From Candidatus Babeliales bacterium (lineage in GTDB: Bacteria > Babelota > Babeliae > Babelales > JANWKD01): 64,000 nt of DNA. The translations under genes were made by a program, and so were the position numbers. Under the pieces are notes generated by a model, which saw only the letters and a list, made by a program, of their open reading frames with translations, did not search any database and had not been told where the DNA came from. Positions 213-56,664 of the stretch are shown piece by piece. Every line of letters starts with the position of its first letter. The stretch's first letter is position 1. The stretch spans positions 512,001 to 576,000 of the forward strand of contig CAVRJO010000001.1 of NCBI GenBank assembly GCA_963722255.1. The letters run 5' to 3'.

Positions 213-674
213 TTACTCTATATATTGATCATACGCTGTTGAGTACATCTCATGAACAACGTTATATGACTTAACTGCTACATCCAATGTAAAACGTGAA
301 CCAAAGAGACATAACGCGACAACTCGTCCAATATAACTTCTTTCATTTTGATTATCTTTATTATAATTTTTAAGAGCATCATAACCCTCTTCATCATAAT
401 CTACCAATGAAGCTCCACAAAAACAGGTCTTACGCTTGCACTTATTAACCCATTGGACATAGCAAAGCGAATGTACTGAATGGCCACAATATAAAGTTGT
501 AATAGATCCTTTTCTAACTGACAATGAGTCTAAACAAAAAGAACATGCGGCATTCAAATCAACTTTTATTTCTTCCACATTACGATTGTGAATTTTTTCT
601 ATTTCAGTTTCCATTGCACAACCAAAAGAACAACTTATCAAACATATAAATAAAAAATTTTTAATTTGTATCAT
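213..674 (-). CDS. Signal-peptide protein with RING-H2-like zinc finger (putative E3 ligase effector)
   Basis: Likely start MIQIKNF (ORF track starts at 725). Hydrophobic leader ends FGCA|METE. Motif CSFC..CGHSVHSLC..WV..CFC. Confidence 0.7.
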   Translation of the reverse strand: MIQIKNFLFICLISCSFGCAMETEIEKIHNRNVEEIKVDLNAACSFCLDSLSVRKGSITTLYCGHSVHSLCYVQWVNKCKRKTCFCGASLVDYDEEGYDALKNYNKDNQNERSYIGRVVALCLFGSRFTLDVAVKSYNVVHEMYSTAYDQYIE

Positions 675-746
675 TATGACCATCGATGTTGAATAGATAT
701 TATTTTTAACAGTTATATGCTTCAAAACTACCTTGGATTGATCTCT

Positions 747-1895
747 TTAAAAATGTGGCGCACTTGCCTCACCATTAAAATTTCCACTTTTAATATCGCC
801 GACATCAGCAGAAACTACCGCTAATGAATCATCCATTCGATCAATTATTTTTGAAATTTTTTCTAACTCTTTTTTTTGCGCAAAATCGCTATTTTTCAAC
901 TGTGCCAACGCAGAACTTATTTGAACTAAGCATTCTCTACATTCTTTAGTAGCTTTGTTTGTCGCGCTAATATCATTTGATGCATTATTAAGTGTTTCAA
1001 TTGCTTTTGTCATTCTCTTATTTAAAGTATCTACTTGTTGTGATAAAGCATGATATCCATTCTCATCAAACTCAGTTTGTATCAACAATAATATTGATCT
1101 ATAGTGTGCAAGATAATTTGCGTACAAAGCACTCGTATTGTCATTAACGGTATTCAATGTTACTTTAGCATTCTGTTCCATCAATTTTATTGAGCTTTGT
1201 GCTTGATCTCTAAGCTCAATAATGGAATTTTTTGCCGCCTGCGCACGTTCCGTTTCAAGCCTTGCTGCTTGAAACTTTTCTTTTTTAATAGCAACATCGT
1301 AATCACGTTTTTGCTGTTCGGCCAATGCTATTTTTTCATTCTGCAGCTCTTTAGCAACTACATTTTTAAACAAAAGGCTATGAGAATCAAAAACCTTCTT
1401 TAAAGATTTTTCTAATTTATCAACAACCTCACGTTCCTCATCAGAAAACTCATTATAATGATCACTAAAGCCTGCAATATCTTTTTCTAATTGACGAGCA
1501 TACCAAACATGTATAAAGGGTGTTTGATGATTAAAGTGTACCGCTGCTCGAGTATCCAATCCTTCTTGCGTTAATGCAGCACCTTTACCTACAATTTCTA
1601 TTTCACAAGCATATTTTTTTTGAACATGTTGAACAAACTTTTCTGCTTCTTCACGCTTTTTCTCCTTTTCTTGCTTTGTTTTTTCTTGCAGATTAAGCCT
1701 TTTTTGTTCTAAACGTTTTGCTTCTGAGCTCCCACTACCAGCAATATAAGCTATTGGAGTAGTTACCAAAAATACTGCTGCCACAGCAATTCCAACAGCC
1801 GGCCTTACAAAATCATTTAGATCCAAAGCCTGTGCATCATTATGCCTTACAAGTATGCTTATACTCATCAAGCCACATAGTACTATTTTTTTCAT
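747..1895 (-). CDS. Exported/membrane-anchored coiled-coil protein
   Basis: Likely start MKKIVLCG, signal peptide to AQA, second hydrophobic segment, then long E/K/Q-rich helical region. Confidence 0.65.
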   Translation of the reverse strand: MKKIVLCGLMSISILVRHNDAQALDLNDFVRPAVGIAVAAVFLVTTPIAYIAGSGSSEAKRLEQKRLNLQEKTKQEKEKKREEAEKFVQHVQKKYACEIEIVGKGAALTQEGLDTRAAVHFNHQTPFIHVWYARQLEKDIAGFSDHYNEFSDEEREVVDKLEKSLKKVFDSHSLLFKNVVAKELQNEKIALAEQQKRDYDVAIKKEKFQAARLETERAQAAKNSIIELRDQAQSSIKLMEQNAKVTLNTVNDNTSALYANYLAHYRSILLLIQTEFDENGYHALSQQVDTLNKRMTKAIETLNNASNDISATNKATKECRECLVQISSALAQLKNSDFAQKKELEKISKIIDRMDDSLAVVSADVGDIKSGNFNGEASAPHF

Positions 1896-2056
1896 AAAAT
1901 CCTTTATAATATTCTCAATAAAATGCGCTACAAAAGCATTTTTTATAAGTGTAATCAAAATAAAATATTTTCATAGGAATCATTATAAGTATTTTTCTGC
2001 TATAAAATCCCTATAACCCTAATTCCTTTTAAGAAAATTTTAGAAATAAAGATATT

Positions 2057-2968
2057 AGACCTCTTCTGAAACTCATTTAACCAACTCAAAATTATAGATA
2101 CCCGCAATAAGATTGAAACGGAGCCCAAATCTTTTTCGTCGATTGCGATATTTGTCAGCAACTATTTTAAAACGTTTTATCATACCAATTACATGCTCAT
2201 TTAAAACACGCTGGCTTGATAATTCTCTATTTCGTTGTTTATCTGTTAATGTTAAAGGATTTTTTTTACTTTTTTTCTTTGGCATAGAAGTATTATTATG
2301 AATTTTTTTTAGACCTAAATAACCTGTATCTGTAAGAACTTCAGTAGATTTTGCGAAGTGAATTTTTGAAGTTTTGAAGAGTTTAAAATCATGTCGTTTA
2401 CCATCTGAAAAATTTGTACAAACAATTTCTTTTGTTTTTTTGTTTACAACTACCTGAGTTTTTATAGTATGACGTTTTTTCTTACCGGAATAAAATTTCC
2501 GCTGTTTTTTTTAGGACGTTCAATAGGACTTTCAGTTGCATCTATTAAAATAACTTCAAATTCATTATCGCTTTTCAGTAGCGCTTTTCTGCCAGGCAAT
2601 CTAAATTCTTTGCTTTGAATAAGAGTATTTTCAACCCATCGTATTGCTTCAAATGCATTGCTTTCAGCAATGCCATAACTTGTCGCAATATGAAGATACG
2701 TTCGATATTCCCGTATATATTCAAGAGTCATCAAAAGCATTTCTTCAATACTGAGCTTATTTGGACGTCCTCCCTTTGCCTTTTTTATTTTTTGCGCTTC
2801 TTTTAAAATAGAAACCAATACTTCAAATGTTTTTCGTTTTACTCCAGTTACTCTTCTAAAGTTTTTTTCTGATGAAATTTTTAATTTTTCATACTTCATA
2901 ATCGCTTACCCTTTTTTTATAAATCGATTATGATTATGCCATAAAATTTATAGTTTCAGAAGAGGTCT
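2057..2968 (-). mobile_element. IS5-family insertion sequence (ISL2-like, 912 bp)
   Basis: Perfect 17-bp terminal IRs AGACCTCTTCTGAAACT (2057-2073) / AGTTTCAGAAGAGGTCT (2952-2968). ATT direct repeat at 2054-2056 and 2969-2971 (TA with 16-bp IRs is an alternative reading). Transposase inside. Confidence 0.95.
2073..2899 (-). CDS. IS5-family transposase, two overlapping frames joined by a -1 frameshift
   Basis: ORF1 2462-2899 has HTH and IDATESPIERPKK. A8 run at 2505-2512. The -1 frame reads QRKFYSGKKKRHTIKTQ..HDF..DTGYLG..EHVIG..KRFKI and is open to 2073. Confidence 0.9.
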
Positions 2969-5853: not shown

Positions 5854-7377
5854 CTAATTTTTTTTCATGTATTTTTCAAAAAGTGCTAGAATTTGAGAAT
5901 CATTTCCAGCATATTCTAAAGGCGTCATCCTGTTTTCATCATGATCAATATATTCCATACGAGGATCCGCATTTTTCTCTAACAAAAATTCAATGAGGTC
6001 TAATTTTTTGTCTGAAACATCAATTGCCCATACCAGAAGAGGTATCTTAAATTGCGCGCTCACTATAGTCGCGTTAGCATCCATACCCCTTTCAACCAAT
6101 TTTTTAATTAATTCTTTATAAAATTTATATTTCTTATCAAAATCTACCGCGCCAATTCTGTAACTGCCTTTTGTTACATCTAAATGAGAATTTTCAGCTA
6201 ATATTTTTAATGCTTCTTCCGGATGCTTAAATACTCCCTCACTGAATCCTTTAAATTTTTGACTTAACTTATTTGCTTCTTTCAATGGTTCTTTAAAAAC
6301 TGGCAATATCCTTAACCTAAATGAACTATCATAAGGATTTCTAAAAGTTCTTATTTCTTTATCAATTTCCCCGATCAACTCATAGCTAACTTTTTTATTC
6401 AATCTCTTTATAATCTCTGCAGCCAAAAAATCATCGCCTGAACATAGGCGATACATAAACTTATTTATTCGAGCAAGATGAGAGATATCGAGCAAAGTTT
6501 GTATGTAATATTTTTTTTCAGAAACACGCGTTGGTATTAAAAAACCCATGATTTCATAAAGTAGTTCATTAGGAAGATCAGAAATACCTAAAATTTTCTC
6601 TTCTTCCTGCTCAACTGAGGAACTATTATTGTCAACTAAAAAAGAGTTCGGTACAAAATAATGCTGCAATGCTTCAATTACTGAACCAAGAGGCTTAAAT
6701 CCTCGCGTTTCTTTTTTTTTAAGTCCACGTTTTTTAAGTTCACGACCTGCTGAAGCATGTTGTATGCATTTTTGAAAAGCAGGTAATATTCTAATTCGAA
6801 ACGATGGATCATAAAAATTTCTACAGGATTTTACAATGTTCTCCATACTGTTAAAAGACAGAATGCTACTCCCAGCCATTTTTTTAAAAAGATCCAATAG
6901 GAAATCTTCATTAGAAGAATAATTATCTTTCATCGTCTTACAAGATTGTGTAAAACTCGTAATATCCTGCAATACCTGTATAAATCGCTTTTCGCTTCCA
7001 ATAAATTCTGGTATCATCCTAAAGACTATTTTCATTACCATTTCATAAGGAAGCACTAAAAAATAGTTACTAATTTGGCTCGTATCTTGTTGGCACCGTT
7101 TATACAAAGAATTTCGAACTATAATCTGCTTATTTGATTCTTCGGGGACCAAGTTATCAAATTTTTTAGCAACGCTTTTTCCCAAAGCAGTTAAAATGGA
7201 GAGTGTGTTGTTATCTACAACAACCAACAATCTCTGATCATCCTTTTTTTCTGATTGTTTATCCACCCCAGGAAAGGTATTGCCTTCTTGCATTGCCCTT
7301 AAAGTCCCAGATACAAAAAGTAGAGAAATAAACAGGCTACAAACTTTTGCTAAAAAATGGCATTTTATGTAATTCAT
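5854..7377 (-). CDS. Signal-peptide protein with two F-box-like repeats and C-terminal ankyrin-like region
   Basis: LRA|MQEG. LVLPYEMVMKIV and SDLPNELLYEIMGFL. Internal duplication. C-terminal LVERGMDAN..PLLVWAI..FLLEKNADP..TPLEYA. Confidence 0.7.
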   Translation of the reverse strand: MNYIKCHFLAKVCSLFISLLFVSGTLRAMQEGNTFPGVDKQSEKKDDQRLLVVVDNNTLSILTALGKSVAKKFDNLVPEESNKQIIVRNSLYKRCQQDTSQISNYFLVLPYEMVMKIVFRMIPEFIGSEKRFIQVLQDITSFTQSCKTMKDNYSSNEDFLLDLFKKMAGSSILSFNSMENIVKSCRNFYDPSFRIRILPAFQKCIQHASAGRELKKRGLKKKETRGFKPLGSVIEALQHYFVPNSFLVDNNSSSVEQEEEKILGISDLPNELLYEIMGFLIPTRVSEKKYYIQTLLDISHLARINKFMYRLCSGDDFLAAEIIKRLNKKVSYELIGEIDKEIRTFRNPYDSSFRLRILPVFKEPLKEANKLSQKFKGFSEGVFKHPEEALKILAENSHLDVTKGSYRIGAVDFDKKYKFYKELIKKLVERGMDANATIVSAQFKIPLLVWAIDVSDKKLDLIEFLLEKNADPRMEYIDHDENRMTPLEYAGNDSQILALFEKYMKKN

Positions 7378-7567
7378 TAAAAGTATCCACATTGAAATAA
7401 TAGTAACTATTTTCTTTATATTAGTATATTTTTATATTTTTTAATAGAATACCACTAAAAAATATTATTCAAAATACTCCTCTGCTAAAGCCCCTTTTTT
7501 GAGGGGTTTTATCTTTTTCTCCTCATTGCCTTGTAGTAAAAAATATTAAAAGTTTTACACTTAGAAT

Positions 7568-13611: not shown

Positions 13612-14085
13612 ATGGTAAAAAAATCACTTTTTTTATTGAGCATAATATCTATACTGTGTTTTACGACAGCGCCTATGCAACAAGAACTTTCACGCAAAAA
13701 AAAGTTGTCGGCATGTTCATCTCTAATTGCAACTACCATTGGTGTGATAAGCCTCACTGATCAACTCGTTAACAATAAAAAATCATGGCGTCAATCCGCT
13801 TTTACAGTTAGTAGCTGTGTTGTAGGAATTGCAAGTTTCTATAACTATCTTTCGTGGTGTAACCCAACGGTCTATTCGTACTCACATAATATGAATTTGA
13901 TAGGTGTATGCCAAAGAAATTTTTCTTTAGTCAGTTATACGCATGTAGATGTGGTTGAACATACAACTCATTATACAATAGAAGGTAAAAATTATAATAA
14001 AAGTAAATTCTTATCGGAGGAGTATGAATATTCCGATGGTATTATTTATAATGCAGTAGGCAACATAATAGAGCCCAATAATTAA
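13612..14085 (+). CDS. Exported protein with two short hydrophobic segments
   Basis: Signal peptide ending TTAP|MQQE and two hydrophobic stretches. Confidence 0.6.
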   Translation: MVKKSLFLLSIISILCFTTAPMQQELSRKKKLSACSSLIATTIGVISLTDQLVNNKKSWRQSAFTVSSCVVGIASFYNYLSWCNPTVYSYSHNMNLIGVCQRNFSLVSYTHVDVVEHTTHYTIEGKNYNKSKFLSEEYEYSDGIIYNAVGNIIEPNN

Positions 14086-14103: not shown

Positions 14104-15816
14104 TTAATCAAATGGGAGATGCAAAACAGTGCTTTCACATGCTGATTGTGCAATAATTGTTTCACCCATACTATAAATATCGGTGATCGGATCTTGAATT
14201 CTTATATCAAGTTCTCGTGGTTCACGTGGCTCTTTATCGCTATGTTCAATAAATTTAAGTTTTCCATCCTTCATGCCCATAAGCAATCCATCATCTCGAA
14301 CTTTAAGTGTCACTACATTAGTTACATCAAAAGGTGCATAAAACTCTGTACCATTATCTAAATGAATGCCAATTAGTGCATTTTCTGTTAAATAGACAAG
14401 AACAGGATTATAAAGAGCTATGCTTTTAACTGCCGAATTACAAGGAAAAACCTTGATATACTTCTTGTCTTTTAAATCCCAAACCTTAATAGTTTTATCG
14501 GTTGATCCGGAAAATAGCTTGTACGAATCTTCCATCGTAAATCCAGTAATTTCACCGGCATGCTTTTCTCTAAAAGAAAAGTGTTCATCATCTTTTATGT
14601 TATCAATTTCCAATGATCCATTCTCATAAGCACGCACAAGATAAGGATACTCAAAGTGAATTCGCGTTGGACGATTCTCTTGAGCATTAAAATATACTGA
14701 AATAGTATGAAACATAAACGAAGGTGGACATAAAGTTTCAGTGACTAAATCAGGAATAGAATAATTTTCATCGGCAAAAAACAACGGCTCATTATTCTGC
14801 GTCATATACGTTTTAACTAACAGTTTTTCTTTCAAATCATAACAGTCAACTAATCCATTATGCTGAGGAAGAAAGACAAATCGATCAAAAAAATAGGGCT
14901 TACACGCTAAGCTCGAATCAACTTTTACAATAATTGTATGCCTTCTTGGTCCATGAACCTTCGAAGCTTCATCAAGAAGGTGTTCCATAGGAGAAACATC
15001 TTTATGATGATCCCTACCTGAATGCATATCGCTATACGATCTATTACGATCATAAAAGCCATTATTATGTAAAGAACTTACAGCAGAATGAGAAGCATTA
15101 TCATCTAATAACTTTTGCAGTAATTGAGCATATTTTCCTACTTCTTTTGCAATTATGGGCTCATCGGATAAACGTTCTTGTACATTGCGCAATAGTCTAG
15201 GTTGATCCTTTAATAGCATTGTAGAATAATTATTGAGGAGCCCGACAATTATATCCTTTGAAAGATCTGAATCATTACATGAAAATATTTCACCACATGC
15301 TTTCAGTCCTCCAACAAACTCTCCTGCAATAGAATCTAAATCAGTAGTTTCTTTCTCTTTCTCTTTTTCATAACAAATTTTTTGTGCAATTTGTGCAGAA
15401 CTGCGTAATGAACACAGATTTTTCAACCGAGTAAAAACTTTTTGCTTCCTACCGGGCAAAATAATTTTCTCTATAATCAGATTGCGTACTATTTCTTCAG
15501 ATTCAGTATCTCGTATTTTAGACTCATAAAGATCCATAACAACAAGGCAAAATTTCTTTGTCAATGACCAATTTTTATCAATTACCTCATTAATCATATA
15601 TGATAATGCGTTTACTTGTTCTTTATATGATAAGGTTGTAAGTTCTTTCAACATATCCTGAAATAATCCTAAATACGCTCCATTTTTATCATACATTTCA
15701 TGCAAGTTGCGAGCAACCATGCTACAATGCTCACCTAAACCATCCTCCATAGAAAAAATTCCACTAAAATTCAAACAAACTATAAAAGTGAATGCTATAA
15801 TTATTTTTTTTTGCAT
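14104..15816 (-). CDS. Signal-peptide WD40-repeat protein (paralog A)
   Basis: IFS|MEDG. HAGEITGF..LFSGSTDKTIKVWDL. AGGAG RBS. Confidence 0.8.
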   Translation of the reverse strand: MQKKIIIAFTFIVCLNFSGIFSMEDGLGEHCSMVARNLHEMYDKNGAYLGLFQDMLKELTTLSYKEQVNALSYMINEVIDKNWSLTKKFCLVVMDLYESKIRDTESEEIVRNLIIEKIILPGRKQKVFTRLKNLCSLRSSAQIAQKICYEKEKEKETTDLDSIAGEFVGGLKACGEIFSCNDSDLSKDIIVGLLNNYSTMLLKDQPRLLRNVQERLSDEPIIAKEVGKYAQLLQKLLDDNASHSAVSSLHNNGFYDRNRSYSDMHSGRDHHKDVSPMEHLLDEASKVHGPRRHTIIVKVDSSLACKPYFFDRFVFLPQHNGLVDCYDLKEKLLVKTYMTQNNEPLFFADENYSIPDLVTETLCPPSFMFHTISVYFNAQENRPTRIHFEYPYLVRAYENGSLEIDNIKDDEHFSFREKHAGEITGFTMEDSYKLFSGSTDKTIKVWDLKDKKYIKVFPCNSAVKSIALYNPVLVYLTENALIGIHLDNGTEFYAPFDVTNVVTLKVRDDGLLMGMKDGKLKFIEHSDKEPREPRELDIRIQDPITDIYSMGETIIAQSACESTVLHLPFD

Positions 15817-15848: not shown

Positions 15849-17450
15849 TTACTTAAGCGGTAAATGAACCATTGCACAATCTTTTTCCGATTGTGCAATA
15901 ACAATATCTTCTAAACAGGTAAGTTTCATTATAGAACCTTCTATTCCGGTTTTTATGGTTATTGGCTCTTGAATCTTCTTGTCAATTTTAATGTATCTAA
16001 GATTGCCATTATTCAAACCAAAAATAAAACCATCGTTACGCGATCTAAAAACTTCGGCCCGATGCGCATCAATATCCATTGGAAATGCTGACCTATCTTC
16101 TGGATCACAATTCATTAACGCATTATCGGTTAAAGAAAAAATCATTGTATCAAAAATAGCAATATCTTTAACTGGCCTCCAACAATCAATTGTTCCTTTA
16201 TATCGTTTTTTTCTTAAATTCCAAAATTTAACAGTCTTATCGGTTGATCCCGATAGCAATCTATGCAAGCCAACGAATATCAAAGAAGTAACTGTCCCAT
16301 TATGCTTCTCTTCAAAAGAAAAATGTTCACCTTCCTTTACATTATCTATTTCAAGAGAAGTATCATACGCTCTTACAAGATAGGGATACTCAAAAAGCAC
16401 CTTACTGGGACAAATCAGATCATTATTGAAATAAGCAAAAATCATTTGCTTCCGTAAACAAGGATGCGCTATTTTTTCGCATGTCATTCCCGGAATAGTA
16501 CAATCTTCTTTGGCAATAAAAAGAGGGTTTTTGCCGGTAAGTTTATATGGTTTATGATATTCTCTTCCCTGAAGATCTAAACAATGAACTGTTCCATTTT
16601 TTGCAGGAAGAAAAAGAAGGTGCCCATATATAAAAGGACGACAGTATGCAAAATCAATATCTTTTCCTACAATATGACCTTTTAGTGTAAACTTCTTTTT
16701 TTTCAAAGAAGCTTTCGGTGCATTTTCTAATTCTTTCTTTTTCACAAATTTTTGCAGAGAAAGAAGATATCTTTTGAGCTCTCTTTGAATATATCCTTTG
16801 TTCATTCTATTTTTTGCTTCTTGAAGAATAGCACACTGATCCTCTAAGGTCACATTCAAGTCATCTAATAAGGTATTAATTATATCACGAGAAACTCCAG
16901 AATCTCCGCACTTAAACATTTCAGACCAAGCAACGAGTCCAGTACAAAATCTTTTTACCAATTCTTCTGATTGACCTGAACTCTTTTCTTTTTCTTTCTC
17001 ATTTTTGCAAGCGACTTTTATTTTGGTCGACCCTTGGAAACAAAGCGCTTCTAACTTTTCAAATATTTTTGGTTTATCACTGCTTTGTAAACTAAGAATC
17101 CTTTCTACAATTTGATGTCGAATAGCATCTTCAATGCCGGTGCCTTTTATTTTGGTATCAAAAAGATTCAATACAACAAGGCACAAATTTTCAGTTAATG
17201 ATCTATTTTTATTAACAACCTCACGAATCATATGTGATAGTGCTTCTATTTGCCCTTCATACGACAACTCATTGAGCTCTCCAAGCATTGTTTGATACAA
17301 AGCTGAATATTTTTTATTTTCATAGTGTTTATTAAGGTTACGAGCAACTGTTATAAAATATTCACCAAAATTATCTACATTCATGGAAAAAGTTACACCA
17401 AAGTTCAAAAAAACCATAAGAGCAAATGTTGTTCTTATATTATTTTGCAT
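15849..17450 (-). CDS. Signal-peptide WD40-repeat protein (paralog B)
   Basis: TFS|MNVD. HNGTVTSL..LLSGSTDKTVKFWNL. Colinear with paralog A (shared FEYPYLVRAY). Confidence 0.8.
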   Translation of the reverse strand: MQNNIRTTFALMVFLNFGVTFSMNVDNFGEYFITVARNLNKHYENKKYSALYQTMLGELNELSYEGQIEALSHMIREVVNKNRSLTENLCLVVLNLFDTKIKGTGIEDAIRHQIVERILSLQSSDKPKIFEKLEALCFQGSTKIKVACKNEKEKEKSSGQSEELVKRFCTGLVAWSEMFKCGDSGVSRDIINTLLDDLNVTLEDQCAILQEAKNRMNKGYIQRELKRYLLSLQKFVKKKELENAPKASLKKKKFTLKGHIVGKDIDFAYCRPFIYGHLLFLPAKNGTVHCLDLQGREYHKPYKLTGKNPLFIAKEDCTIPGMTCEKIAHPCLRKQMIFAYFNNDLICPSKVLFEYPYLVRAYDTSLEIDNVKEGEHFSFEEKHNGTVTSLIFVGLHRLLSGSTDKTVKFWNLRKKRYKGTIDCWRPVKDIAIFDTMIFSLTDNALMNCDPEDRSAFPMDIDAHRAEVFRSRNDGFIFGLNNGNLRYIKIDKKIQEPITIKTGIEGSIMKLTCLEDIVIAQSEKDCAMVHLPLK

Positions 17451-17520
17451 AGATTCTCCTTGCATAATGTTTTTTTACCCTACAGTACCGCTTTTTTGAG
17501 CCGTTGTAAATTTATATGTA

Positions 17521-22923: not shown

Positions 22924-23142
22924 TTAAAAATTATCATAAAAATGAATTGGATGTGTAGGACCAGAGCCACAGTTTTGTGTTTGTTGGCTAAAAGATTCTA
23001 TTTGAGCTTCTGCTCCACTGGTACTAGCAACCTGAGAACCGGAATTGGCGACACCATTTGTACCATTTTCCATACTATACGTAGTATGCACAGTAACGAT
23101 TAAAAATAAAATCACTCTATATATACAGTTCTTGATATTCAT
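22924..23142 (-). CDS. Small exported protein
   Basis: GAGG RBS, MNIKNC.. leader ending TYS|MENG, 72 aa. Confidence 0.6.
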   Translation of the reverse strand: MNIKNCIYRVILFLIVTVHTTYSMENGTNGVANSGSQVASTSGAEAQIESFSQQTQNCGSGPTHPIHFYDNF

Positions 23143-23200
23143 TAATAATCTCCTCATTATGATTACGTGAACTTGATTCATGTCTACTATTATTATAATT

Positions 23201-23848
23201 CTACTGAACTATACCTCTATACTTTTGAAAATCTTCTTGAAAGGTGACAAACTTAAAATGCATGAATACCGTAGTACTCATATTGATCATGCGAGCGTCC
23301 ATATCTCTGCATGCTTGTATATATCGAACTCTATTGTTTGCTCTTTCAATAAACTGTTGCGTCACAAGATAAATATTAGAGCTCCCAAATGTCCCTTGCA
23401 TAAACACATTCCCATTTTCTTGTTTTAATTTTTCAATTTTAGAATATGCAGCTCCATAGTCAGTTTCAATGTTAAGAGGTCGTGTTTCAGTAAATTGCTT
23501 GAGACGATCCAATTGCAAGAAAAACTTAAAATCCAATAAAAAATCCGCATTTACATTTTGACCTGTCACTTTTTTAAATGCCAATTCTGTAAGATATGTT
23601 TTGTAATAAAGTGAATCCTTTTCTTCAACTTGTTTAATTAAAGCAGCCAATTTTTCAAGGTTAACATACTCATCACATTCTTTGCTTGTATTTCTAAAAC
23701 AAACAATATTATTATCTTGTACTTCGATTTTGCCTTGCATAAAGGCTTCAATCAAATTGATGGTGAAAGAATAATTATCATTTCGCTCTTCCATAGAATG
23801 CAGGGGTAAAATAGCACTACAAACCAACATAACTAATTTAAACCACAT
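23201..23848 (-). CDS. Exported hypothetical protein
   Basis: AAGGAG RBS, MWFKLVML..LHS|MEER. Confidence 0.7.
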   Translation of the reverse strand: MWFKLVMLVCSAILPLHSMEERNDNYSFTINLIEAFMQGKIEVQDNNIVCFRNTSKECDEYVNLEKLAALIKQVEEKDSLYYKTYLTELAFKKVTGQNVNADFLLDFKFFLQLDRLKQFTETRPLNIETDYGAAYSKIEKLKQENGNVFMQGTFGSSNIYLVTQQFIERANNRVRYIQACRDMDARMINMSTTVFMHFKFVTFQEDFQKYRGIVQ

Positions 23849-23870
23849 AGCACTCCTTAATAACGTACAA

Positions 23871-24422
23871 CTATTGCTCAAAAATACCTTCATCTAAAGC
23901 TTTTTTGTACCAATCAATACTTTGTTCAATAAGAAGATGGGCTTCTTGCTTGTCTAAAAACCGATCCACAATCACTTGTTTTTCTTCTAACTTTTTATAG
24001 GTTTGAAAAAAATCCTTGATTGTTTCGACCAAATCATGCGGGAGCTCTTCAATAGTTTTTATACCATTAACGCTATAATCGTGCGTTGCAACGGCTATAA
24101 TCTTATCATCTTGCTGCCCGGCATCAATCATATGTAATGCTCCTATGGGGGTTATTTCTACAATAGATAAAGGCACAAGCGGTTCTGAACAAATAATAAC
24201 TGCATCAAGGGGATCATTATCATCACAATACGTTTGTGGAATAAATCCATAATGAAAAGGATAGGTCAAATGCGTACGCAAAACTCTATCTAATCGTAAT
24301 AATCCGGTTGCCTTATCAAGTTCATATTTTGCTTTTGAACCTTTGGTAATTTCAATAACAGCATTAACCGTATCCGGCGAACCCTTTCCATAAGACAATG
24401 CATGCCAAGGATGAAGAATCAT
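23871..24422 (-). CDS. ppa: Soluble inorganic pyrophosphatase (family I)
   Basis: KYELDK, YGFIPQT, DNDPLD, DDKIIAV. Confidence 0.96.
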   Translation of the reverse strand: MILHPWHALSYGKGSPDTVNAVIEITKGSKAKYELDKATGLLRLDRVLRTHLTYPFHYGFIPQTYCDDNDPLDAVIICSEPLVPLSIVEITPIGALHMIDAGQQDDKIIAVATHDYSVNGIKTIEELPHDLVETIKDFFQTYKKLEEKQVIVDRFLDKQEAHLLIEQSIDWYKKALDEGIFEQ

Positions 24423-26134: not shown

Positions 26135-26719
26135 ATGAAACTACTAAAATTATATAGTCTATTCTTTTTATCTTTTGTTATAGCCAATATTTCAGGCATG
26201 GAAGAACCGCTTACCAGAGAAAACGTTATCGAAAAATTTGAGGAATTGAAAGATTTGTATGAAAAAAACAAGAGTAATCTGTATGATAATAATATAACAC
26301 TTCCTTATAATCGTAGATGCGAGAGAATAGCTAAAGATCTTAATGGTAAAGATCCTAATCTTCAAAATATAGTAAGACTAATTGACGGTTGCACTAAGAT
26401 TATTAATTCTGAAATCGAAAAAATCAGAGGAGATGACTTAGAGTCGAGAAACCGGTACACACAATATAATATGAATAGAGCAGGCATTGCGCCAGCAGCA
26501 GCAACAGCTCCTGCAGCATTTAATACTAGTCCAAAAATCAATATACCAAAAATTGTAGCCTATCTTTGTGGAACAGGAATTTGCACTGGCATTGGGATTT
26601 ATAGCTATTATAAACTTTCCCCTGAAGCATGGTTTCGACCAATTTCATTGGGTTTAAGTTCTGTTGGCGGAATCGCATGCAGTTATTTAACCTATATACA
26701 TTGCATTCATCGAAAATAA
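26135..26719 (+). CDS. Exported protein with C-terminal two-helix hydrophobic domain
   Basis: ISG|MEEP. C-terminal AYLCGTGICTGIGIYSYY..ISLGLSSVGGIACSYL. Confidence 0.7.
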   Translation: MKLLKLYSLFFLSFVIANISGMEEPLTRENVIEKFEELKDLYEKNKSNLYDNNITLPYNRRCERIAKDLNGKDPNLQNIVRLIDGCTKIINSEIEKIRGDDLESRNRYTQYNMNRAGIAPAAATAPAAFNTSPKINIPKIVAYLCGTGICTGIGIYSYYKLSPEAWFRPISLGLSSVGGIACSYLTYIHCIHRK

Positions 26720-27572
26720 AATAGGATTTTTATTACATTAACTATTCTTAGTACTCTTAGAGATAAGCAATAAGCATCATCTATTATTAAGGGCAACCGC
26801 ATGAAATTACCAAAAATCTTTTTTATATTCCTTAGCGTTCTCCTGACGTTACCTCTCTTATCAATGGAAAAATTAACTAAAGAAGGGCTACAACTACAAT
26901 TCGATCAACTTAATGAAAAGTTTATGGAAAATAAATCTTCACTTAATGTCACAACCGAATCCAAAGTGGAAGCTCTAATCAATTCAACACAAGAATCATT
27001 AAAAAAGAAAAAATTGAAAAAAAAGAGTTCAAAAACAGTTTATGAAAATATTACTCAAGCTCAAGAGCTTTTAGATAGTGCAATTAAACAAAAAAAAAGC
27101 GAAGCTCTTTTGCTGGCTAGAGCACAAAAAATGAAAGGAAAAGCACAAGAAGCTGAAAAGCAAACAACTCAACGATTACAATGCCAAGCACCACAATTAC
27201 AACAATTTCCACAACAAGTACAAAATGTTGAATATTTTGTATTACAAATTCCTGAACCTGAAATGTTAGCCCAACCAAATCCAATAACCGAGTTTTCCTT
27301 AAGTGCAATACAAGAGCAAGAACCAGACACTATCCTAACTACTCTTCCAGGACTTCTTCATCCAAAAGAAAATATACCAATGCTTTCAACTGCATTGCAT
27401 AAAGCTCGCCCGATTTCTTGGGGCAAAGTATATGCCTATCTTTGTGGCACTGGACTTTGTACTGGCATTGGGATTTATAGCTATTATAAACTTTCTCCTG
27501 AAACATGGTATCGACCAATTTCATTGGGTTTAAGTTTTCTTGGCGGATCAGCTTGCAGTTATTTAACCTATA
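26558..27572 (+). repeat. 139-bp direct repeat (26558-26696, 27434-27572) encoding the shared hydrophobic domain
   Basis: Long identical runs, e.g. ACTGGCATTGGGATTTATAGCTATTATAAACTTTC and CGACCAATTTCATTGGGTTTAAGTT. Confidence 0.9.
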
Positions 27573-29389: not shown

Positions 29390-30394
29390 TTATTGAAGGC
29401 CTGTTCCGGTTGCTCCAGCGGCACCATCATCACCGCCATTATCTCTTTCCGGCTCTTCATCGCTTGATACATCGTCGCCTTCATCATCTATCACAAGAGG
29501 CCTGATATTTGTCATTCTTCTTTTTCTCTTTCTTCTTATATTGGCAACGTCCTTAATAAATTTCCTCACGCGGCCAGTGTTTGGATCAAAATAATAATTT
29601 ACATACTGACTATCTTTTTTAGTAACCTGATTCTCAATAGACAGAATATCTATTTCTTGAGTTCCAAGCCTAACATCATTATCAATGGTTGTTTCAACAC
29701 TGCTAGTAGTACCAACAGGAATCCATTCTCCAAGAGGAATCAAATTATTAAGATTAACTCTTGGGTGAAGTATAGTATCAAACTCTCTAGCGATTTCATC
29801 ACCCTGTCCTAAAGGCCCGAACAATGAATCATTACGATCTTGTGATCTTGGTTGCATATAATCCAAAACAGGTCGATCTGGCGTAGGAGTATTAAACTGC
29901 ATAATTAAATCACGAAGCTCATCTAAATTTCCATTATCAACATTTGAACCAACATCTGACATTTCAGTATCTTGACTATTATTTGACAAAAATGATGAAA
30001 ATATAGCAGACATGCCAACATTGTCTTCATTATCTGCTGAATTCAATTGTTCCAAATTATTATAATAGTTTTCATGATTATAATGCGCTGGATTAAAAGA
30101 ATCAGAATTACCTACATTTTGATTTGGATTCACACGATCAGATACATAAGGATATAAAGCAGCAATTGCTTGACTTATTTGATATGCTCGATTTCGATCT
30201 ACCTCAAGACTTAAAGCTAAGCGCCTGTCCTCTAAATTAGCACGGGTAAAATTTTCACCCAATCCCAAAAACTCACGCGCATTCCTAATTTCCTCACCAG
30301 GTTGAACAATAGGATGATTAGGATTATGTTCCATTGCATTACTCATTGCAACAAACGTCAGTAAAACTAAAATTCCATTTAATTGATTTTTCAT
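29390..30394 (-). CDS. Exported protein with J-like N-terminus, N-rich middle and basic/acidic tail
   Basis: SNA|MEHN, AREFLGLGENFT, RRKRKRR. Confidence 0.65.
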   Translation of the reverse strand: MKNQLNGILVLLTFVAMSNAMEHNPNHPIVQPGEEIRNAREFLGLGENFTRANLEDRRLALSLEVDRNRAYQISQAIAALYPYVSDRVNPNQNVGNSDSFNPAHYNHENYYNNLEQLNSADNEDNVGMSAIFSSFLSNNSQDTEMSDVGSNVDNGNLDELRDLIMQFNTPTPDRPVLDYMQPRSQDRNDSLFGPLGQGDEIAREFDTILHPRVNLNNLIPLGEWIPVGTTSSVETTIDNDVRLGTQEIDILSIENQVTKKDSQYVNYYFDPNTGRVRKFIKDVANIRRKRKRRMTNIRPLVIDDEGDDVSSDEEPERDNGGDDGAAGATGTGLQ

Positions 30395-31032
30395 AAATCC
30401 CCCTTGAAATAAATTTTAAAATATGGAAGTTCAAAAAGCGACTCATATCTTTGCATCATTTGTTCAGAAGTCTCCAATGTTTTTGGTTGCATTAACTGAC
30501 TGCTGTTACTCGCATTGAGTCCTGCAAGTTGTGCATATAATATATTTTCATCATTCGCTTCTTTAATTCCTAAATCTCTATCAACCGGTTTTTTAATTGC
30601 TAACGCTTGATCAATTGTTTTTTTAATTGCTGGAAACGAAAGCATAATAATTAATCTGCGATAACAATCAAAAAAATACGCTGATTCTTCACTTGTAGGC
30701 AGCGTCGTATTCATATATGAGCGCACTTCATTAATTTCTTCTAATGAAGTATTTTTCAAACCCAATTCAGCACAATAATCCACACCCTTCTTAATAACAT
30801 CTTGAATAGTAGTGTTCTCAGGATTTATAAATCCAAAATCTTTGCAACGCTCAATTCGTGTATAGTGCAATTCATTGCAAGAGACATCTTTTGAAAGATC
30901 TAAAATATGTCGCCATTTATTTTGTTCTTGTTCATCGATTTGTCCTAAATAATCATGACTTTCTCTATACATTGCATTATTCATTGCAATAAATGAGAGT
31001 AAAACCCAAACTAATGCTAATTGTTTTTTCAT
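30391..31032 (-). CDS. Exported hypothetical protein, leader paralogous to 29390-30394
   Basis: NNA|MYRE. ATGA overlap with the downstream gene. Confidence 0.65.
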   Translation of the reverse strand: MKKQLALVWVLLSFIAMNNAMYRESHDYLGQIDEQEQNKWRHILDLSKDVSCNELHYTRIERCKDFGFINPENTTIQDVIKKGVDYCAELGLKNTSLEEINEVRSYMNTTLPTSEESAYFFDCYRRLIIMLSFPAIKKTIDQALAIKKPVDRDLGIKEANDENILYAQLAGLNASNSSQLMQPKTLETSEQMMQRYESLFELPYFKIYFKGDL

Positions 31033-31157: not shown

Positions 31158-31667
31158 CTATTGTGAACTCCACCATGAATTTAATAACCAACCACCAACA
31201 CAACCTATTGCTAAGCAGGATACTGCCCCTAGGCATAATTCTAATCTATGGGGAATAATGTTGGTTTTTATTTTACGATCTTTATAGACTACTTCTTTCT
31301 TTTGAGCGAAGATCTGAGCAAAAAGTTCTTCAATTTTTTTCAACTGAACAATGCTATTTTTTACATTTCTTAGTTCTTCAAGAGCACCATATAGACTATA
31401 TAAATAACTCGTAAAGTATGGCTGCTCTTTAAAATGTGAATCAAAATCTAAAGCAGGGTCGTTTTCTGCCATATTATGATAAGACCTTATTTGTTGTTTC
31501 AAAGCTGCAATAAACTCAGCTTCAATCACTTGCCCCTTCATTCTTCCTATACTTTTTTTTCGCTCTTCAGTAGATACTGTTGAGCCATCTTTTGTCATCC
31601 CCTGCGCACCGGTAAAGGCACCAACTATGAAAATAGTTAAAAATAGGGTAAAAATTCTTTTATTCAT
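31158..31667 (-). CDS. Exported protein with C-terminal TM anchor
   Basis: MNKRIF..AQG|MTKD. C-terminal LCLGAVSCLAIGCVGGWLL. Confidence 0.65.
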   Translation of the reverse strand: MNKRIFTLFLTIFIVGAFTGAQGMTKDGSTVSTEERKKSIGRMKGQVIEAEFIAALKQQIRSYHNMAENDPALDFDSHFKEQPYFTSYLYSLYGALEELRNVKNSIVQLKKIEELFAQIFAQKKEVVYKDRKIKTNIIPHRLELCLGAVSCLAIGCVGGWLLNSWWSSQ

Positions 31668-31794
31668 AACTCCATTCCTTTGAATAAAACTAAATAGTAT
31701 AAACTTGAACATATTTCAAATATACAATATTTTTAAAAAGGCGTCAAATAAGATTTTTAAAGGTATTTTACCTGCCAAAAACACCTTAAAGCAT

Positions 31795-31856: not shown

Positions 31857-32462
31857 TTAATTCCCGGAATTTGAACTGTTTCCTGTAGGATTAAAATTTG
31901 GATGAGTATCAGTAACTCTGACTCGTTGGAGAGTCTCAGTTGTGTTCGTTAACGTATTTTGATTGGTATGTCTGCGAACTATCGTTGTAACATTACCATT
32001 AGGATATGTTCTTCGTACTAATTGCACTAATGATGGATACTGAACAATAGTCTGATTCGCTGAGATATTAGTTGGCTGATATGCTGTAGCTGAAGGTAGT
32101 GTCAATGAAGCCAAATGGTCTGCCCGAGCTGGATTAATCTGTGGTGCTTGTTCTGGAAACAAAGGAATCAATGCGTTATATGCTATGTCTATTTGCTCAG
32201 CTTCAGCTTCGTCTTTTGCATTCATCCTCCGAACAGAGTAAACTCGATGAATATCATTAATCGTTGGATTAGGAGTAAAGGTAGTATTTACCCCTAAAAC
32301 TCCAAGCCAAATTGCTCTTAAATTTTGCTGCGACCCTTCATTAAGTGCTTGGCTTGCAAAAGTTTCTTGAGGATTAGCATCACTATCTCTTTCTTCCATG
32401 CACAATGCATTACCAGCGCAACAAAGTGCTGCAAATAAAGAAAGCTTGTAAAAACTATTCAT
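31857..32462 (-). CDS. Exported protein with J-like segment and T/N-rich tail
   Basis: ALC|MEER. WLGVLGV..TINDIHRVY..EQIDIAYNAL. Confidence 0.65.
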   Translation of the reverse strand: MNSFYKLSLFAALCCAGNALCMEERDSDANPQETFASQALNEGSQQNLRAIWLGVLGVNTTFTPNPTINDIHRVYSVRRMNAKDEAEAEQIDIAYNALIPLFPEQAPQINPARADHLASLTLPSATAYQPTNISANQTIVQYPSLVQLVRRTYPNGNVTTIVRRHTNQNTLTNTTETLQRVRVTDTHPNFNPTGNSSNSGN

Positions 32463-40500: not shown

Positions 40501-41070
40501 ATGAAAAAACAACTCTTATTATCGGTCATCGCTATCGCTACTTTTGCAGGAATGGCCAAGGGAATGCAAGAACCATTACTAGTAGGAAAAACATTCAATT
40601 CTTCTTTTTACGTAGACTGCCATGATCTTTCACAAGATAGAAGGGAAGAATTATGTAAACAATTAGATAAATTACTTAATCTTGAAAGACCAAAGCGAGA
40701 TAAATCACTCTATTCTGTTTATGATATTCTTATTGGTGTTCTAGGAGTAGAAAATCTTAATCCAAAACAAATTGGAGATAATACTAATCATACTACTTTG
40801 ACAATTATGCTAAAGGGTACTTACGTTGATGAGGAAGGAAATCTTGATTTCTATGATGCTGCACATATACTACATGAACATAGCAGCATCCTAAAACCTC
40901 TTATATCAGGTGAGCCACAAAAGCCTAATTTCAAAACCCCTGCACCTATAGGGAATCAAACCTCAGGCCCAAGTCTTTCATGGTTGCTCCCAACTATTAC
41001 CTATGGCGGATTGTTCTTTGGGGGCATGGCAGTTTTAAAAGCATACCAATGGTATAAAGGTACTAAATAG
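40501..41070 (+). CDS. Exported protein with C-terminal TM anchor
   Basis: AKG|MQEP. C-terminal YGGLFFGGMAVL..KGTK. Confidence 0.7.
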   Translation: MKKQLLLSVIAIATFAGMAKGMQEPLLVGKTFNSSFYVDCHDLSQDRREELCKQLDKLLNLERPKRDKSLYSVYDILIGVLGVENLNPKQIGDNTNHTTLTIMLKGTYVDEEGNLDFYDAAHILHEHSSILKPLISGEPQKPNFKTPAPIGNQTSGPSLSWLLPTITYGGLFFGGMAVLKAYQWYKGTK

Positions 41071-41257: not shown

Positions 41258-42037
41258 ATGAAGAAAAACAGCTATTCTATACTTTTTCTATTATTATTGG
41301 GTGTATCTTATGCCCAAGCAATGAATATAATGAATTTAGGGAATGAAATTAAGGCTAATAAAATGGCCCATGGCGATATAAGAAGACCACAGTCTTCAAA
41401 TTTTTCGTCAACCCTCTGTAAAGAAATTTTTGGGGAAATAACAGAAAAATTCGATGAACTTAGAAATAACAGCGAATTATCCAGCCAATTCACATTTTTT
41501 TATTTATATCTGTTACAATCTATTAAAGTTACACAGCAAAGCCCCGAAAACACTCGTATTGGTGTTAACCTTGATAAGGTAGTTGCTACAATTTTTACTT
41601 TTAGAGAATTGCTGAACCGTTATTTTGATGATCCCAATATATATACAATTGATGATGAAAATTTCGAACAAAATCCTTACGTAGAAAAATTAACTAACTC
41701 TGAGTGGTACCTACCATGTCCAAGCGACTATGAAGATTTCTTCATCAGGCTGGTTACAAATGTTCGTATCAATAAAGAAAACATCAGTGTCAACTTAAGT
41801 GACTTAAAAAAATTTATAAACTATTTTGAAAACAGAATAAAAGAAATAACAGATTACAAAGAAACATCACGCGAAGAAGAAGATTATGACCAGGATGAAG
41901 TAGATACAACACTGAAGCCTCAGCCAAAACGCGCTATAAAAATTCCCTTTTACAAAAGACCCGTATTTGTAACATCATGTGTTTTTGGTGGACTTGCTAT
42001 AGGCGCCGGCTTACTGTATTACTTTCTAAAAAAATAA
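41258..42037 (+). CDS. Exported protein with C-terminal TM anchor
   Basis: AQA|MNIM. C-terminal VFGGLAIGAGLLYYFLKK. Confidence 0.7.
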   Translation: MKKNSYSILFLLLLGVSYAQAMNIMNLGNEIKANKMAHGDIRRPQSSNFSSTLCKEIFGEITEKFDELRNNSELSSQFTFFYLYLLQSIKVTQQSPENTRIGVNLDKVVATIFTFRELLNRYFDDPNIYTIDDENFEQNPYVEKLTNSEWYLPCPSDYEDFFIRLVTNVRINKENISVNLSDLKKFINYFENRIKEITDYKETSREEEDYDQDEVDTTLKPQPKRAIKIPFYKRPVFVTSCVFGGLAIGAGLLYYFLKK

Positions 42038-42166: not shown

Positions 42167-42766
42167 ATGAAAATAGAGACGCTCTCGACATCTCTTATAC
42201 TCGTAATAATTTGTTCAATTCAATGTTCAGTGCTTAATGGAATGGAGAAGCAAAATCGTCACAGGTCTTTAGAACTTCTTGAACGTCCTCGTATGCTTCA
42301 TGACGTTATCAAAGAACGGTATTACTTGGGAAAAAACATCAATGCAACAGTACAGATTGTTTTTTCTGATACTATTAAAAACAAGGGCGGCCTTGCAGAG
42401 GTCTGGCAAACAGTCTTAGATTTGACACCCGTTACAACAGCATTATATAAACTTGAGAATAATATAATAGTCCAAGTTAACGTAACAGAGGCATCAAAAA
42501 AATTAAAAAAACATTTTAAACCACAAATAACAGCCAAAACTCTTCGGCATATTCAAAGTGGAAAAACAACAGGCCCTCCAATTCAACCTGCACAACTCCC
42601 TCCTCAAAAAAATCCTAGCTTACTGTATTCAACAGCTTGCGGATTAGCGCTTTTTAGTGCCGGATGGCTGGGTAAAACATGGTGGGATGCTGGTGGCAAA
42701 GATAACACTATCGCCTTAGGGACCTATATTTTAAAGTATCTTTTGGCTGAATTTAATCAATATTAG
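42167..42766 (+). CDS. Exported protein with near-C-terminal TM
   Basis: LNG|MEKQ, Pro-rich linker, LLYSTACGLALFSAGWLG. Confidence 0.7.
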   Translation: MKIETLSTSLILVIICSIQCSVLNGMEKQNRHRSLELLERPRMLHDVIKERYYLGKNINATVQIVFSDTIKNKGGLAEVWQTVLDLTPVTTALYKLENNIIVQVNVTEASKKLKKHFKPQITAKTLRHIQSGKTTGPPIQPAQLPPQKNPSLLYSTACGLALFSAGWLGKTWWDAGGKDNTIALGTYILKYLLAEFNQY

Positions 42767-50312: not shown

Positions 50313-50435
50313 AATGATCACTCTCTTTTTTTTGGGATACTGTATTATTCAATAAAATGTATACCACATGACAAAAAAAGAAGGCAAGAAGTTGCTAATG
50401 CCTCCCCTATCAACAAAAGCAAAATACCTTATTAT

Positions 50436-52277: not shown

Positions 52278-52307
52278 AAGAGGGTCAAATAAAAACAAGA
52301 ATATTTT

Positions 52308-55513: not shown

Positions 55514-55537
55514 AGCACTTAATTGTTCCAAAAAAAT

Positions 55538-55577
55538 AAAATGGCACGTATATAAAATTTATATCACGTGCCATTTC
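55538..55577. terminator. Hairpin between convergent genes
   Basis: AAATGGCACGT..ACGTGCCATTT. Confidence 0.7.
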
Positions 55578-55605
55578 TATCTTCTCAAACTAAACAATTG
55601 AGCTC

Positions 55606-56664
55606 TTATTTTGGTTTTACAATCAGTTCATATTTTTCTAGCAACTTGTTACAATCAAGATTGTTTTGAACATTGCGTGCTATGCGCGTAAAACTATTTT
55701 TTATCAATGACGATAAAGCAGATTCTTCATTTCTTTCTATTGCATGATCAAATGGTGAACGGTGCGCATTATCTTTATGAAGAATATTAATATTTTTATT
55801 CCCCATTAATAACGAAATTATAGAATCAAATCCTTTTTGTGATGCATGTGTTAATGCAGAATACCCAAAATCATCAGTAGCATTAACATCAAGATCAGAT
55901 CTTTCAAGCATAAGCTCAACATAATAATCTGAGCCGGTGTTTACAGCAGTAATAAGTGGCGTGAAACCATAACCATCTTTACTATTTATATTAATGCGCT
56001 CATCTGCCAATAATGCTTGCAAACTTTGAAGATCGTTATTGTTTAAAGCAACAAATATAGGATTAAAGCCGTGTTTTTTAAGACTATCAAAATTTGCATT
56101 TAAAAGTTTTTTTGATACTTTACCTGAATTCACATACTTTTTACATAGGGGTTGGTTGGATTTTTGTGCAAGCTTACACAATGTCGAGTAAGTATTAACT
56201 TCAACGGGTAGATCATGTGAGACTCTTACAACGTTTTCTGCATTTACTAATGATTGAGCTGCAAAAAATTTCAAGCAAGGAACAGTTTTTTTTATTGGTT
56301 TTTGATCAGCCAAAGCCGCGCTCAAAGAAACAATTGGTTGAATATGTTGAATAGGTTCTTGAGAAGCTTCAGAGGCCAAATCATGTGGTATTCTTACAAC
56401 GGCTAATGCTGAATGCTCATTATCTTTATTAATTATTTCTTCTTTCTCAATAGACTCATCATCATTGTTTCTTGCAGGCTCTACTTCAAAAGCAATAGAA
56501 GGCGTATTGCCTTTGTCTTTATCATGACTATTTCCTTGAGCAAAATAGATCAAAGAATGTGCACGTAATGGGCTATCTTCATCTAAATCGCTAAGCTGCA
56601 TAGCATACAACCCAAAAGGTACAATTAAACCGCATAGAAAAAACATACAATATTTTTTTACCAT
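55606..56664 (-). CDS. Signal-peptide ankyrin-repeat protein with BC-box-like motif
   Basis: LYA|MQLS, VPCLKFFAAQSL, GFTPLITAV, GYSALTHAS, RSPFDHA. Confidence 0.8.
   Translation of the reverse strand: MVKKYCMFFLCGLIVPFGLYAMQLSDLDEDSPLRAHSLIYFAQGNSHDKDKGNTPSIAFEVEPARNNDDESIEKEEIINKDNEHSALAVVRIPHDLASEASQEPIQHIQPIVSLSAALADQKPIKKTVPCLKFFAAQSLVNAENVVRVSHDLPVEVNTYSTLCKLAQKSNQPLCKKYVNSGKVSKKLLNANFDSLKKHGFNPIFVALNNNDLQSLQALLADERININSKDGYGFTPLITAVNTGSDYYVELMLERSDLDVNATDDFGYSALTHASQKGFDSIISLLMGNKNINILHKDNAHRSPFDHAIERNEESALSSLIKNSFTRIARNVQNNLDCNKLLEKYELIVKPK

Follow-up and report, generated by a model that had tools for sequence, protein, structure and literature searches.

The window analysed here is a stretch of 64,000 nucleotides (C1:512001-576000) from the genome of a Candidatus Babeliales bacterium, which comprises 1.62 Mb in two contigs at 34% GC. 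Seventeen open reading frames (ORFs) of the window begin with a leader of the Sec type that is followed directly by methionine, and the same arrangement recurs throughout the genome. The Met-first pattern is real, far beyond chance and much larger than the window. It probably represents a class-specific "P1-prime Met rule", i.e., a selected Sec/signal peptidase I (SPase I) site placed before Met on host-interaction-type and orphan cargo in part of the order.

The seventeen ORFs had been listed in the initial annotation, and all of them were recovered with their leader/Met junctions (from GCA/ME at 213 to LYA/MQ at 55606; the slash marks the predicted cut). The residue following Met (+2) is Glu, Gln or Asn in 15 of the 17, the exceptions being Met-Tyr (30391) and Met-Thr (31158). 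In each of them a short N-terminal Lys/Arg stretch is followed by about 12-16 hydrophobic residues, a small residue and Met.

Methionine at the Predicted First Mature Position

The frequency of Met at +1 was determined for the whole genome in a set of 1656 non-overlapping ORFs of at least 70 amino acids (aa). The junction test used was blind to Met and required a hydrophobic nine-residue window upstream, hydrophilic residues at the next ten positions and a small residue at -1. Met occupies 112 of 606 junction positions (18.5% versus a background of 1.9%, a 9.8-fold enrichment), so that the excess of +1 Met over background which the initial annotation had proposed to look for is large. All other residues lie between 0.4-fold and 1.5-fold of background, Gln reaching 1.4-fold. 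Counted by ORFs, a Met junction is present in 109 of the 328 that have any strict junction.

When the -1 residue was left free, 203 Met junctions were obtained in 188 ORFs. The residue preceding Met is Ala, Ser, Gly, Thr or Cys in 171 of the 203 (84%), as against 27% at comparable non-Met positions; position -3 is Leu, Ile, Ser, Val, Ala or Thr in 161, and position -2 is mostly bulky (Phe, Tyr, Asn, Leu). Glu follows Met in 95 of the 203 sites, Asn in 31, Gln in 19, Lys in 14 and Asp in 9, and Met-Glu/Asn/Gln/Asp together account for 154. At native N-termini the second residue is distributed differently: Glu takes it in 21 of 521 cases (4%), whereas Lys accounts for 28% and Asn for 18%.

The leaders carry Lys or Arg within residues 2-8 in 166 of the 188 ORFs and have a median length of 22 aa (interquartile range (IQR) 20-25). 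Their median uncharged run is 16 aa, a value to be read with the reservation that hydrophobicity was among the selection criteria, so the test of the hydrophobic region is partly circular. The ten residues after Met are polar, with a mean net charge of -0.6. The leaders are genuine signal peptides of the Sec/SPase I type, as had been suspected, and their -3/-1 rule is anchored on the Met.

A position-specific scoring matrix (PSSM) was trained on 149 strict genome-wide sites, and its threshold was set at the 99.8th percentile of the scores of 5103 internal Met positions. It finds a leader/Met site in 296 of the 1656 ORFs with 4.4 false ones expected, a count that is partly circular since positions -1 and +2 are included in the model. 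Among the 147 sites outside the training set, a small -1 residue is present in 136 and Glu at +2 in 69. In the window the matrix returns exactly the seventeen named ORFs and none besides.

Proteins Carrying the Methionine

A Pfam scan covered the class members within 864 kb of the genome (the window and 40 other stretches). The 73 strict Met-class proteins comprise nine ankyrin proteins, four WD40/beta-propeller proteins, two DnaJ proteins, one C2H2 zinc finger protein, one Sel1/TPR protein and 56 proteins with no family (E <= 1e-4). Another composition is found for the 128 signal-peptide-like proteins that have no strict Met site (E <= 1e-6): 40 are enzymes, transporters, chaperones, membrane proteins or DUF proteins, seven are ankyrin/WD40 proteins and 81 have no family. 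The 40 include SurA, Skp/OmpH, FKBP, two thioredoxins, DsbD, SBP_bac_3, peptidases S8, S41 and M23, two GH1 proteins, phosphatidylserine decarboxylase, FtsH and GT61. The PSSM transfers 12 of the 128 to the leader/Met set; four of these come from the seven ankyrin/WD40 proteins, and the 40 with enzyme-, transporter- or chaperone-type families contribute none.

The Met marks fast-evolving host-interaction-type and orphan secreted proteins, of which there are about 300 in the genome (approximately 18% of its ORFs), and this association is strong but not absolute. The link to eukaryote-like domains suggested in the initial annotation is supported insofar as the class is enriched in repeat/adaptor proteins and orphans and takes in none of the 40 conserved exported proteins. 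The broader statement made there, that all RING, F-box, ankyrin, WD40 and J-like proteins belong to the class, fails on the scale of the genome, where the Met is truly missing from three ankyrin proteins that have signal peptides.

A hydrophobic C-terminal tail was considered as an additional mark of the class and rejected, the difference between 24 of 149 strict members and 23 of 220 non-Met signal-peptide-like ORFs being weak.

Conservation of the Methionine

The strict Met-class proteins were compared with 120-140 kb samples of the same-genus genome G066 and of two genomes of the same family (f1). The leader/Met junction is kept in 15 of the 19 best homologue pairs (11 of 14 distinct subjects), with only about 21% identity in the ten residues on each side. 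Judging from these alignments, the Met is under strong selection. G066 is syntenic with the window (H+-pyrophosphatase 83% identical, TypA 88%), and the ORF directly after the H+-pyrophosphatase gene encodes a leader followed by Met-Gln-Gln in both genomes (13612 in the window; L083:9883-10113 in G066), the remainder of this ORF having diverged past BLAST detection. For the WD40 protein of the window (14104-15816), a search of 121 genomes of the order gave a match at E <= 1e-10 in only two, this genome (G000) included. In BLAST searches against the first seven 100-kb samples, ankyrin repeats accounted for most of the matches, and orthologues that could be used were few.

Grouped by sequence, the 188 genes give 155 families, of which 143 have a single member, and among the 188 leaders there are only 20 similar pairs. 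A recently copied leader cassette therefore does not explain the pattern, and the grafting of such cassettes in front of intact genes, offered as an alternative in the initial annotation, is disfavoured. Only six pairs of paralogous leaders are usable for comparison; their differences number 20, 17 and 26 by codon position, with 13 synonymous versus 32 non-synonymous codon changes. A search for a signal-peptide-less paralogue starting at the Met found none. In the two members of the DnaJ type, the J domain starts 12-16 residues past the Met.

Distribution within the Order and Candidate Partner Genes

The same junction test was applied to 37-140 kb samples of 20 related genomes, and the results are given here as ORFs with a Met junction over ORFs with any junction. 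Family f1 yields 10/23, 10/30 and 10/28, family f2 yields 6/17 and 8/20, and family f19 yields 5/8. The five genomes of f3 range widely (5/20, 4/16, 3/20, 2/13 and 1/21). Low counts are obtained for f8 (2/23), f12 (1/7) and f6 (1/20), and no Met junction occurs in f4 (0/5), f5 (0/16), f7 (0/6), f9 (0/11), f11 (0/8) or f13 (0/7). The rule is limited to part of Babeliales, namely f1, f2, f19 and part of f3. Since the GC content of the rule-poor genomes (29-47%) overlaps that of the rule-rich ones (34-40%), base composition and the heuristics of the test do not create the signal.

Two SPase I genes with PF10502 matches over the cut-off are present (G000:C2:137986-138699, minus strand, locus L001; C2:701964-702665, plus strand, locus L002), their products being 65% identical. 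Both copies look intact and, inspected by eye, possess the Ser and Lys box motifs of E. coli LepB. The L002 gene directly adjoins two Met-class genes (L002:2354-3232 and L002:3336-3602, both on the minus strand). Specialisation of SPase I was rejected as an explanation, as the rule is not paralleled by the number of PF10502 matches: two are found in f1 and f19 but a single one in the rule-rich f2, and rule-poor genomes have one or two.

As a modifier of the new N-terminus, a GNAT acetyltransferase (PF00583, E 3e-14; window 28208-28780, minus strand) was considered, which has an N-terminal hydrophobic segment and is encoded within a run of Met-class genes. Homologues of this membrane-anchored enzyme occur in five of five rule-rich and three of five rule-poor genomes, so it is not discriminating, and it was rejected. 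A curli-type CsgG channel was considered as a reader of the N-terminus and dismissed, PF03783 not being found in the 121 genomes searched. The initial annotation had also pointed to PilC/GspF- and PilN-like genes in the window as parts of a second translocation step; T2SSF (62268-63467) and PilN (52308-52847) genes are indeed present. Type II secretion and pilus components are reported for all seven TM6 genomes compared (PMC4776705, part of the text), and for this reason these genes cannot explain a clade-limited rule.

Start Codon and Alternative Explanations

Two explanations place initiation at the inner ATG. It could be a second initiation site, giving a leaderless cytoplasmic form beside the exported one, with the Met kept as a start codon; or the leader could be untranslated, the inner ATG being the sole real start and the upstream extension of the ORF an artefact. 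The former is in keeping with the near-invariance of the ATG among diverged homologues and with the fact that any residue at +1 would satisfy SPase I (E. coli LepB). Alternative N-terminal proteoforms, known in bacteria (PMC13515050, part of the text), also count in its favour, and for the untranslated leader it can be said that gene finders may pick the inner ATG. The initiation signals argue against both. Of the 188 genes, 83 have a Shine-Dalgarno (SD) core (GGAG, GAGG or AGGA, 4-16 nt upstream) in front of the leader start, as compared with 215 of 521 general genes, whereas it precedes the inner ATG in only 2 of 188, which is a smaller share than for random internal Met codons (216 of 6272) and answers the question of a ribosome-binding site raised in the initial annotation. 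The mean minimum free energy of 40-nt windows is -2.33 kcal/mol at leader starts and -2.36 at general starts, whereas at the inner ATG it is -4.25, i.e., folding is stronger than at true starts and equal to that at random internal Met codons (-4.20, p = 0.73). Because SD cores and weak mRNA folding are found at the leader ATG and not at the inner one, the leader is translated from the upstream ATG. The untranslated leader is refuted and retains virtually no probability: a tight leader length, Lys/Arg n-regions and -3/-1 residues obeying the SPase I rule would not be expected of it, and such open frames in about 300 genes cannot be chance. The second start, which the initial annotation had also listed, is very unlikely. 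The inner ATG lacks the features of an internal initiation site, the next residue is Glu (47%) and not the Lys or Asn typical of true starts, and TTG and GTG are not enriched at +1 (TTG in 2 of 27 Leu codons and GTG in 2 of 11 Val codons, near background). Moreover, a second start gives no reason for a small -1 and an aliphatic -3 residue anchored on the Met.

Two further explanations accept the leader as translated and deny the Met a present role after cleavage. According to one, the signal peptide was added before an older gene by 5' extension or grafting, and the Met is the old start codon, an evolutionary relic. The class does consist of young, fast-evolving, lineage-specific genes, ancient exported proteins being without the Met, and T-rich upstream DNA at 34% GC would readily encode hydrophobic peptides. 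A relic is nevertheless unlikely in view of the persistence of the Met between poorly conserved flanks and of the Glu that follows it in 47% of sites versus 4% at native starts. The start of the J domains well past the Met, the failure to find a leaderless paralogue and the scarcity of similar leaders speak against it too, as do sister families which are rich in signal-peptide-like junctions and almost devoid of Met (f6 and f5). According to the other, the signal peptidase of this clade simply cuts best before Met-Glu, and new or abundant substrates track this processing optimum. The clade-limited distribution of the rule, the two SPase I genes of f1 and f19 genomes and the position of one copy next to two Met-class genes would agree with this. 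However, f2 follows the rule although it has only one SPase I match, two matches are present in several rule-poor genomes, and the copies here are ordinary paralogues by their identity. The 40 conserved exported proteins have had the same peptidase and far longer to adopt the Met, yet none has done so, and a mere optimum of processing is quite improbable.

Proposed Mechanism and Significance

In the selected Sec/SPase I site proposed here, an ordinary Sec signal peptide would be translated from the upstream, SD-preceded ATG, and SPase I would cut the predicted bond between the small -1 residue and the conserved Met. The exported protein would then begin with Met-Glu, less often with Met-Asn, Met-Gln or Met-Asp. 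This new end most likely acts after export, either as a label recognised in the envelope or by giving the protein a stable end like that of a nascent chain once it is in the host. The housekeeping cargo of the same peptidase has not adopted the Met. That Met-Glu is read in the envelope for a second step of sorting or release is a tentative assignment, and a stable, nascent-like N-terminus in the host cell is slightly more doubtful still. More generally, Met-Glu might be a second address label that sets the fate of about 300 cargo proteins after Sec export, either via a release factor of the envelope or via an end resistant to degradation in the host cell, although this is a speculative proposal. 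The clade concerned is one of protist parasites that are not known to possess type III, IV or VI injection systems.

Several observations weigh against the proposed rule or limit its reach. The cut position was placed by the -3/-1 rule and hydrophobicity heuristics and not by measured sites or a trained predictor, and the PSSM count has the circularity mentioned above. The samples of related genomes are small (37-140 kb each) and, the genomes being kin, not independent. Among the candidates examined (SPase I number, GNAT and CsgG), none proved to be a partner gene distributed in step with the rule. The class association is broken by the three ankyrin proteins named above and by an exported family of about 720 aa (G000:C2:553438-555612, minus strand, and paralogues), which mostly has Thr or Asp at +1 (e.g., YA/TFDPRMTRD) and Met in one copy; isolated Met sites can therefore arise outside the class. 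Of the 149 strict members, 41 contain further hydrophobic segments (only at the C-terminus in 24, internal in 17) that would retain them in the inner membrane of the bacterium, and this is not easily reconciled with delivery of the whole class to the host cytosol. Finally, Asp is rare after Met (9/203), though it would be expected to serve a mimicry of NatB substrates equally well; like the hydrophobic segments and the failure to find a partner gene, this tells against a role confined to the host.

Dependentiae are not known to have injection systems for delivering their large sets of ankyrin, WD40 and orphan proteins to protist hosts, and the Met mark separates such cargo from housekeeping periplasmic proteins. 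It provides a sequence handle for predicting the effector set, Met or Glu is a target for point mutation, and the rule is a trait for the phylogenetic profiling of a reading machinery. There is also a consequence for annotation: if a gene finder took the inner ATG as the start, the signal peptide would be lost and the protein wrongly labelled as cytoplasmic.

Genes of the Window

The coordinates of the seventeen ORFs are collected in Table 1.

Table 1. Met-class ORFs of the window, with the end of the leader and the position of the Met codon at +1 (window coordinates).
ORF	Coordinates	Strand	Leader	+1 Met codon	Residues from +1
RING-like	213..725	-	MIQIKNFLFICLISCSFGCA, ATG at 674; junction GCA/ME	612-614	M, then ETEIE
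Weak ankyrin and F-box-like hints	5854..7392	-	end LRA	7291-7293	MQEGNT
Orphan	13612..14085	+	21 aa, end TAP	13675-13677	MQQELS
WD40/beta-propeller	14104..15816	-	22 aa, end IFS	15748-15750	MEDGLG
Paralogue of 14104 ORF	15849..17465	-	end TFS	17382-17384	MNVDNF
Small orphan	22924..23181	-	end TYS	23071-23073	MENGTN
Orphan	23201..23893	-	end LHS	23792-23794	MEERND
Orphan, C-terminal hydrophobic tail	26135..26719	+	end ISG	26198-26200	MEEPLT
Paralogue of 26135 ORF	26801..27595	+	end LLS	26864-26866	MEKLTK
Orphan	29390..30394	-	end SNA	30332-30334	MEHNPN
Leader paralogous to that of 29390	30391..31032	-	end NNA	30970-30972	MYRESH
Orphan, C-terminal hydrophobic tail	31158..31712	-	end AQG	31596-31598	MTKDGS
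Orphan	31857..32462	-	end ALC	32397-32399	MEERDS
Orphan, C-terminal hydrophobic tail	40501..41070	+	end AKG	40564-40566	MQEPLL
Orphan, C-terminal hydrophobic tail	41258..42037	+	end AQA	41321-41323	MNIMNL
Orphan, C-terminal hydrophobic tail	42167..42766	+	end LNG	42242-42244	MEKQNR
Ankyrin-repeat	55606..56736	-	MVKKYCMFFLCGLIVPFGLYA, ATG at 56664	56599-56601	MQLSDL

With regard to domain content, the description given in the initial annotation holds for the window in part. Pfam detects clear ankyrin repeats in the 55606 ORF and weak ones in the 5854 ORF. The RING match of the 213 ORF only just exceeds the cut-off (21.3 versus 21 bits), the WD40/beta-propeller matches of the 14104 and 15849 ORFs are weak, and the F-box-like match of the 5854 ORF is a hint under the cut-off (E 0.02). 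The J-like proteins named there are not borne out, no J domain being detected by Pfam among the window ORFs. The thioredoxins (17587 and 18460), the SBP_bac_3 binding protein (45815) and the GT61 protein (60447) were said to lack the Met, and they do.

A layout of signal peptide plus tail anchor, with a Gly-rich hydrophobic C-terminus, is seen in six of the seventeen members (26135-26719, 26801-27595, 31158-31712, 40501-41070, 41258-42037 and 42167-42766). DNA polymerase I (PF00476 with both exonuclease domains; 3031-5832, minus strand) has a hydrophobic leader-like start followed by a positive stretch and no Met; this segment suggests that a cytoplasmic enzyme is anchored to the membrane, rather than an export signal. 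Two adjacent small ORFs (58623-58958 and 59028-59318, both on the plus strand) resemble by eye a nucleotidyltransferase/HEPN pair. An ORF of 134 aa (49917-50321, minus strand) is very Cys-rich with repeated C-x-x-C-like spacing, and one of 145 aa (2462-2899, minus strand), possibly a gene fragment, resembles by eye the N-terminal portion of a transposase.

Comparison with Known Signals

Signal peptides have been noted in relatives. In Chromulinavorax, 44% of coding sequences have them, ankyrin proteins among these (PMC6561590), and in Babela they are present in 79 of 126 ankyrin proteins (PMC4378268). In their main texts, the Chromulinavorax paper does not contain the words "motif", "N-terminal" or "methionine", and the Babela paper contains neither "methionine" nor "cleavage". 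In the passages covered, two further papers make no mention of signal peptides (the TM6 comparative study, PMC4776705) or of methionine, TM6 or Dependentiae (the Q-rule study, PMC5837995). In agreement with the view of the initial annotation that the pattern is undescribed, no published description was found in the portion of the literature covered on signal peptides, N-terminal methionine and effectors, and a class-specific rule at the first mature residue is apparently unpublished.

The sites differ from several other signals with a hydrophobic N-terminal segment. Lipoprotein signals cut by signal peptidase II have Cys at +1, where Met stands here, and position -2 is mostly bulky. The RR-x-hydrophobic pattern of Tat (twin-arginine) signals occurs in 5 of the 188 leaders. 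Type IV prepilin leaders do not correspond either, since here the hydrophobic stretch precedes the Met and polar residues come after it.

With classical Sec/SPase I signal peptides the leaders share a positively charged n-region, an uncharged hydrophobic core, a small -1 and a small or aliphatic -3 residue, a length of about 20-25 aa and the presence of SPase I genes. In E. coli, Ala dominates position +1. Here Met takes this position in a third or more of the signal-peptide-like ORFs (109/328), with Glu next in about half, unlike in the rule-poor sister families sampled, where Met at +1 is near background.

The eukaryotic acetyltransferase NatB acts on nascent chains at the ribosome, and its substrates begin with Met-Asp, Met-Glu, Met-Asn or Met-Gln, Met-Asp being taken equally well. 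The analogy drawn in the initial annotation fits loosely: 154 of the 203 sites read Met-Glu/Asn/Gln/Asp, but Asp is rare among them (9/203) beside Glu (95/203). In Plasmodium, the PEXEL is a short motif near the mature N-terminus of fast-evolving proteins exported by the parasite, and the second residue of the new end is acidic or an amide. Both the location of the motif on fast-evolving exported-type proteins and the acidic/amide residue at +2 are paralleled here. However, an RxL element is missing (only 9 of 188 ORFs have RxLx[EQD] in the 40 residues after the Met), the new end would come from SPase I itself without a second protease, and the organism is a bacterium.

The Q-rule of Bacteroidetes offers a bacterial precedent of similar kind: Gln stands at +1 of SPase I substrates and is cyclised to pyroglutamate (PMC5837995 and PMC10653852, parts of the texts). 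Both rules are lineage-specific preferences for the first mature residue found by proteome-wide site statistics. They differ in the residue, which is Met here (9.8-fold) and not Gln (1.4-fold), in the cargo, which is one class here (0/40 conserved exported proteins) and most SPase I substrates, those with housekeeping roles among them, there, and in range, which is part of an order here and a phylum there. No modifying enzyme comparable to glutaminyl cyclase was found in this case, the GNAT candidate not being discriminating, and to our knowledge none is known for the Met rule. Even if the Met has no function after cleavage, it would still constitute a second lineage-specific rule for a first mature residue, after the Q-rule.

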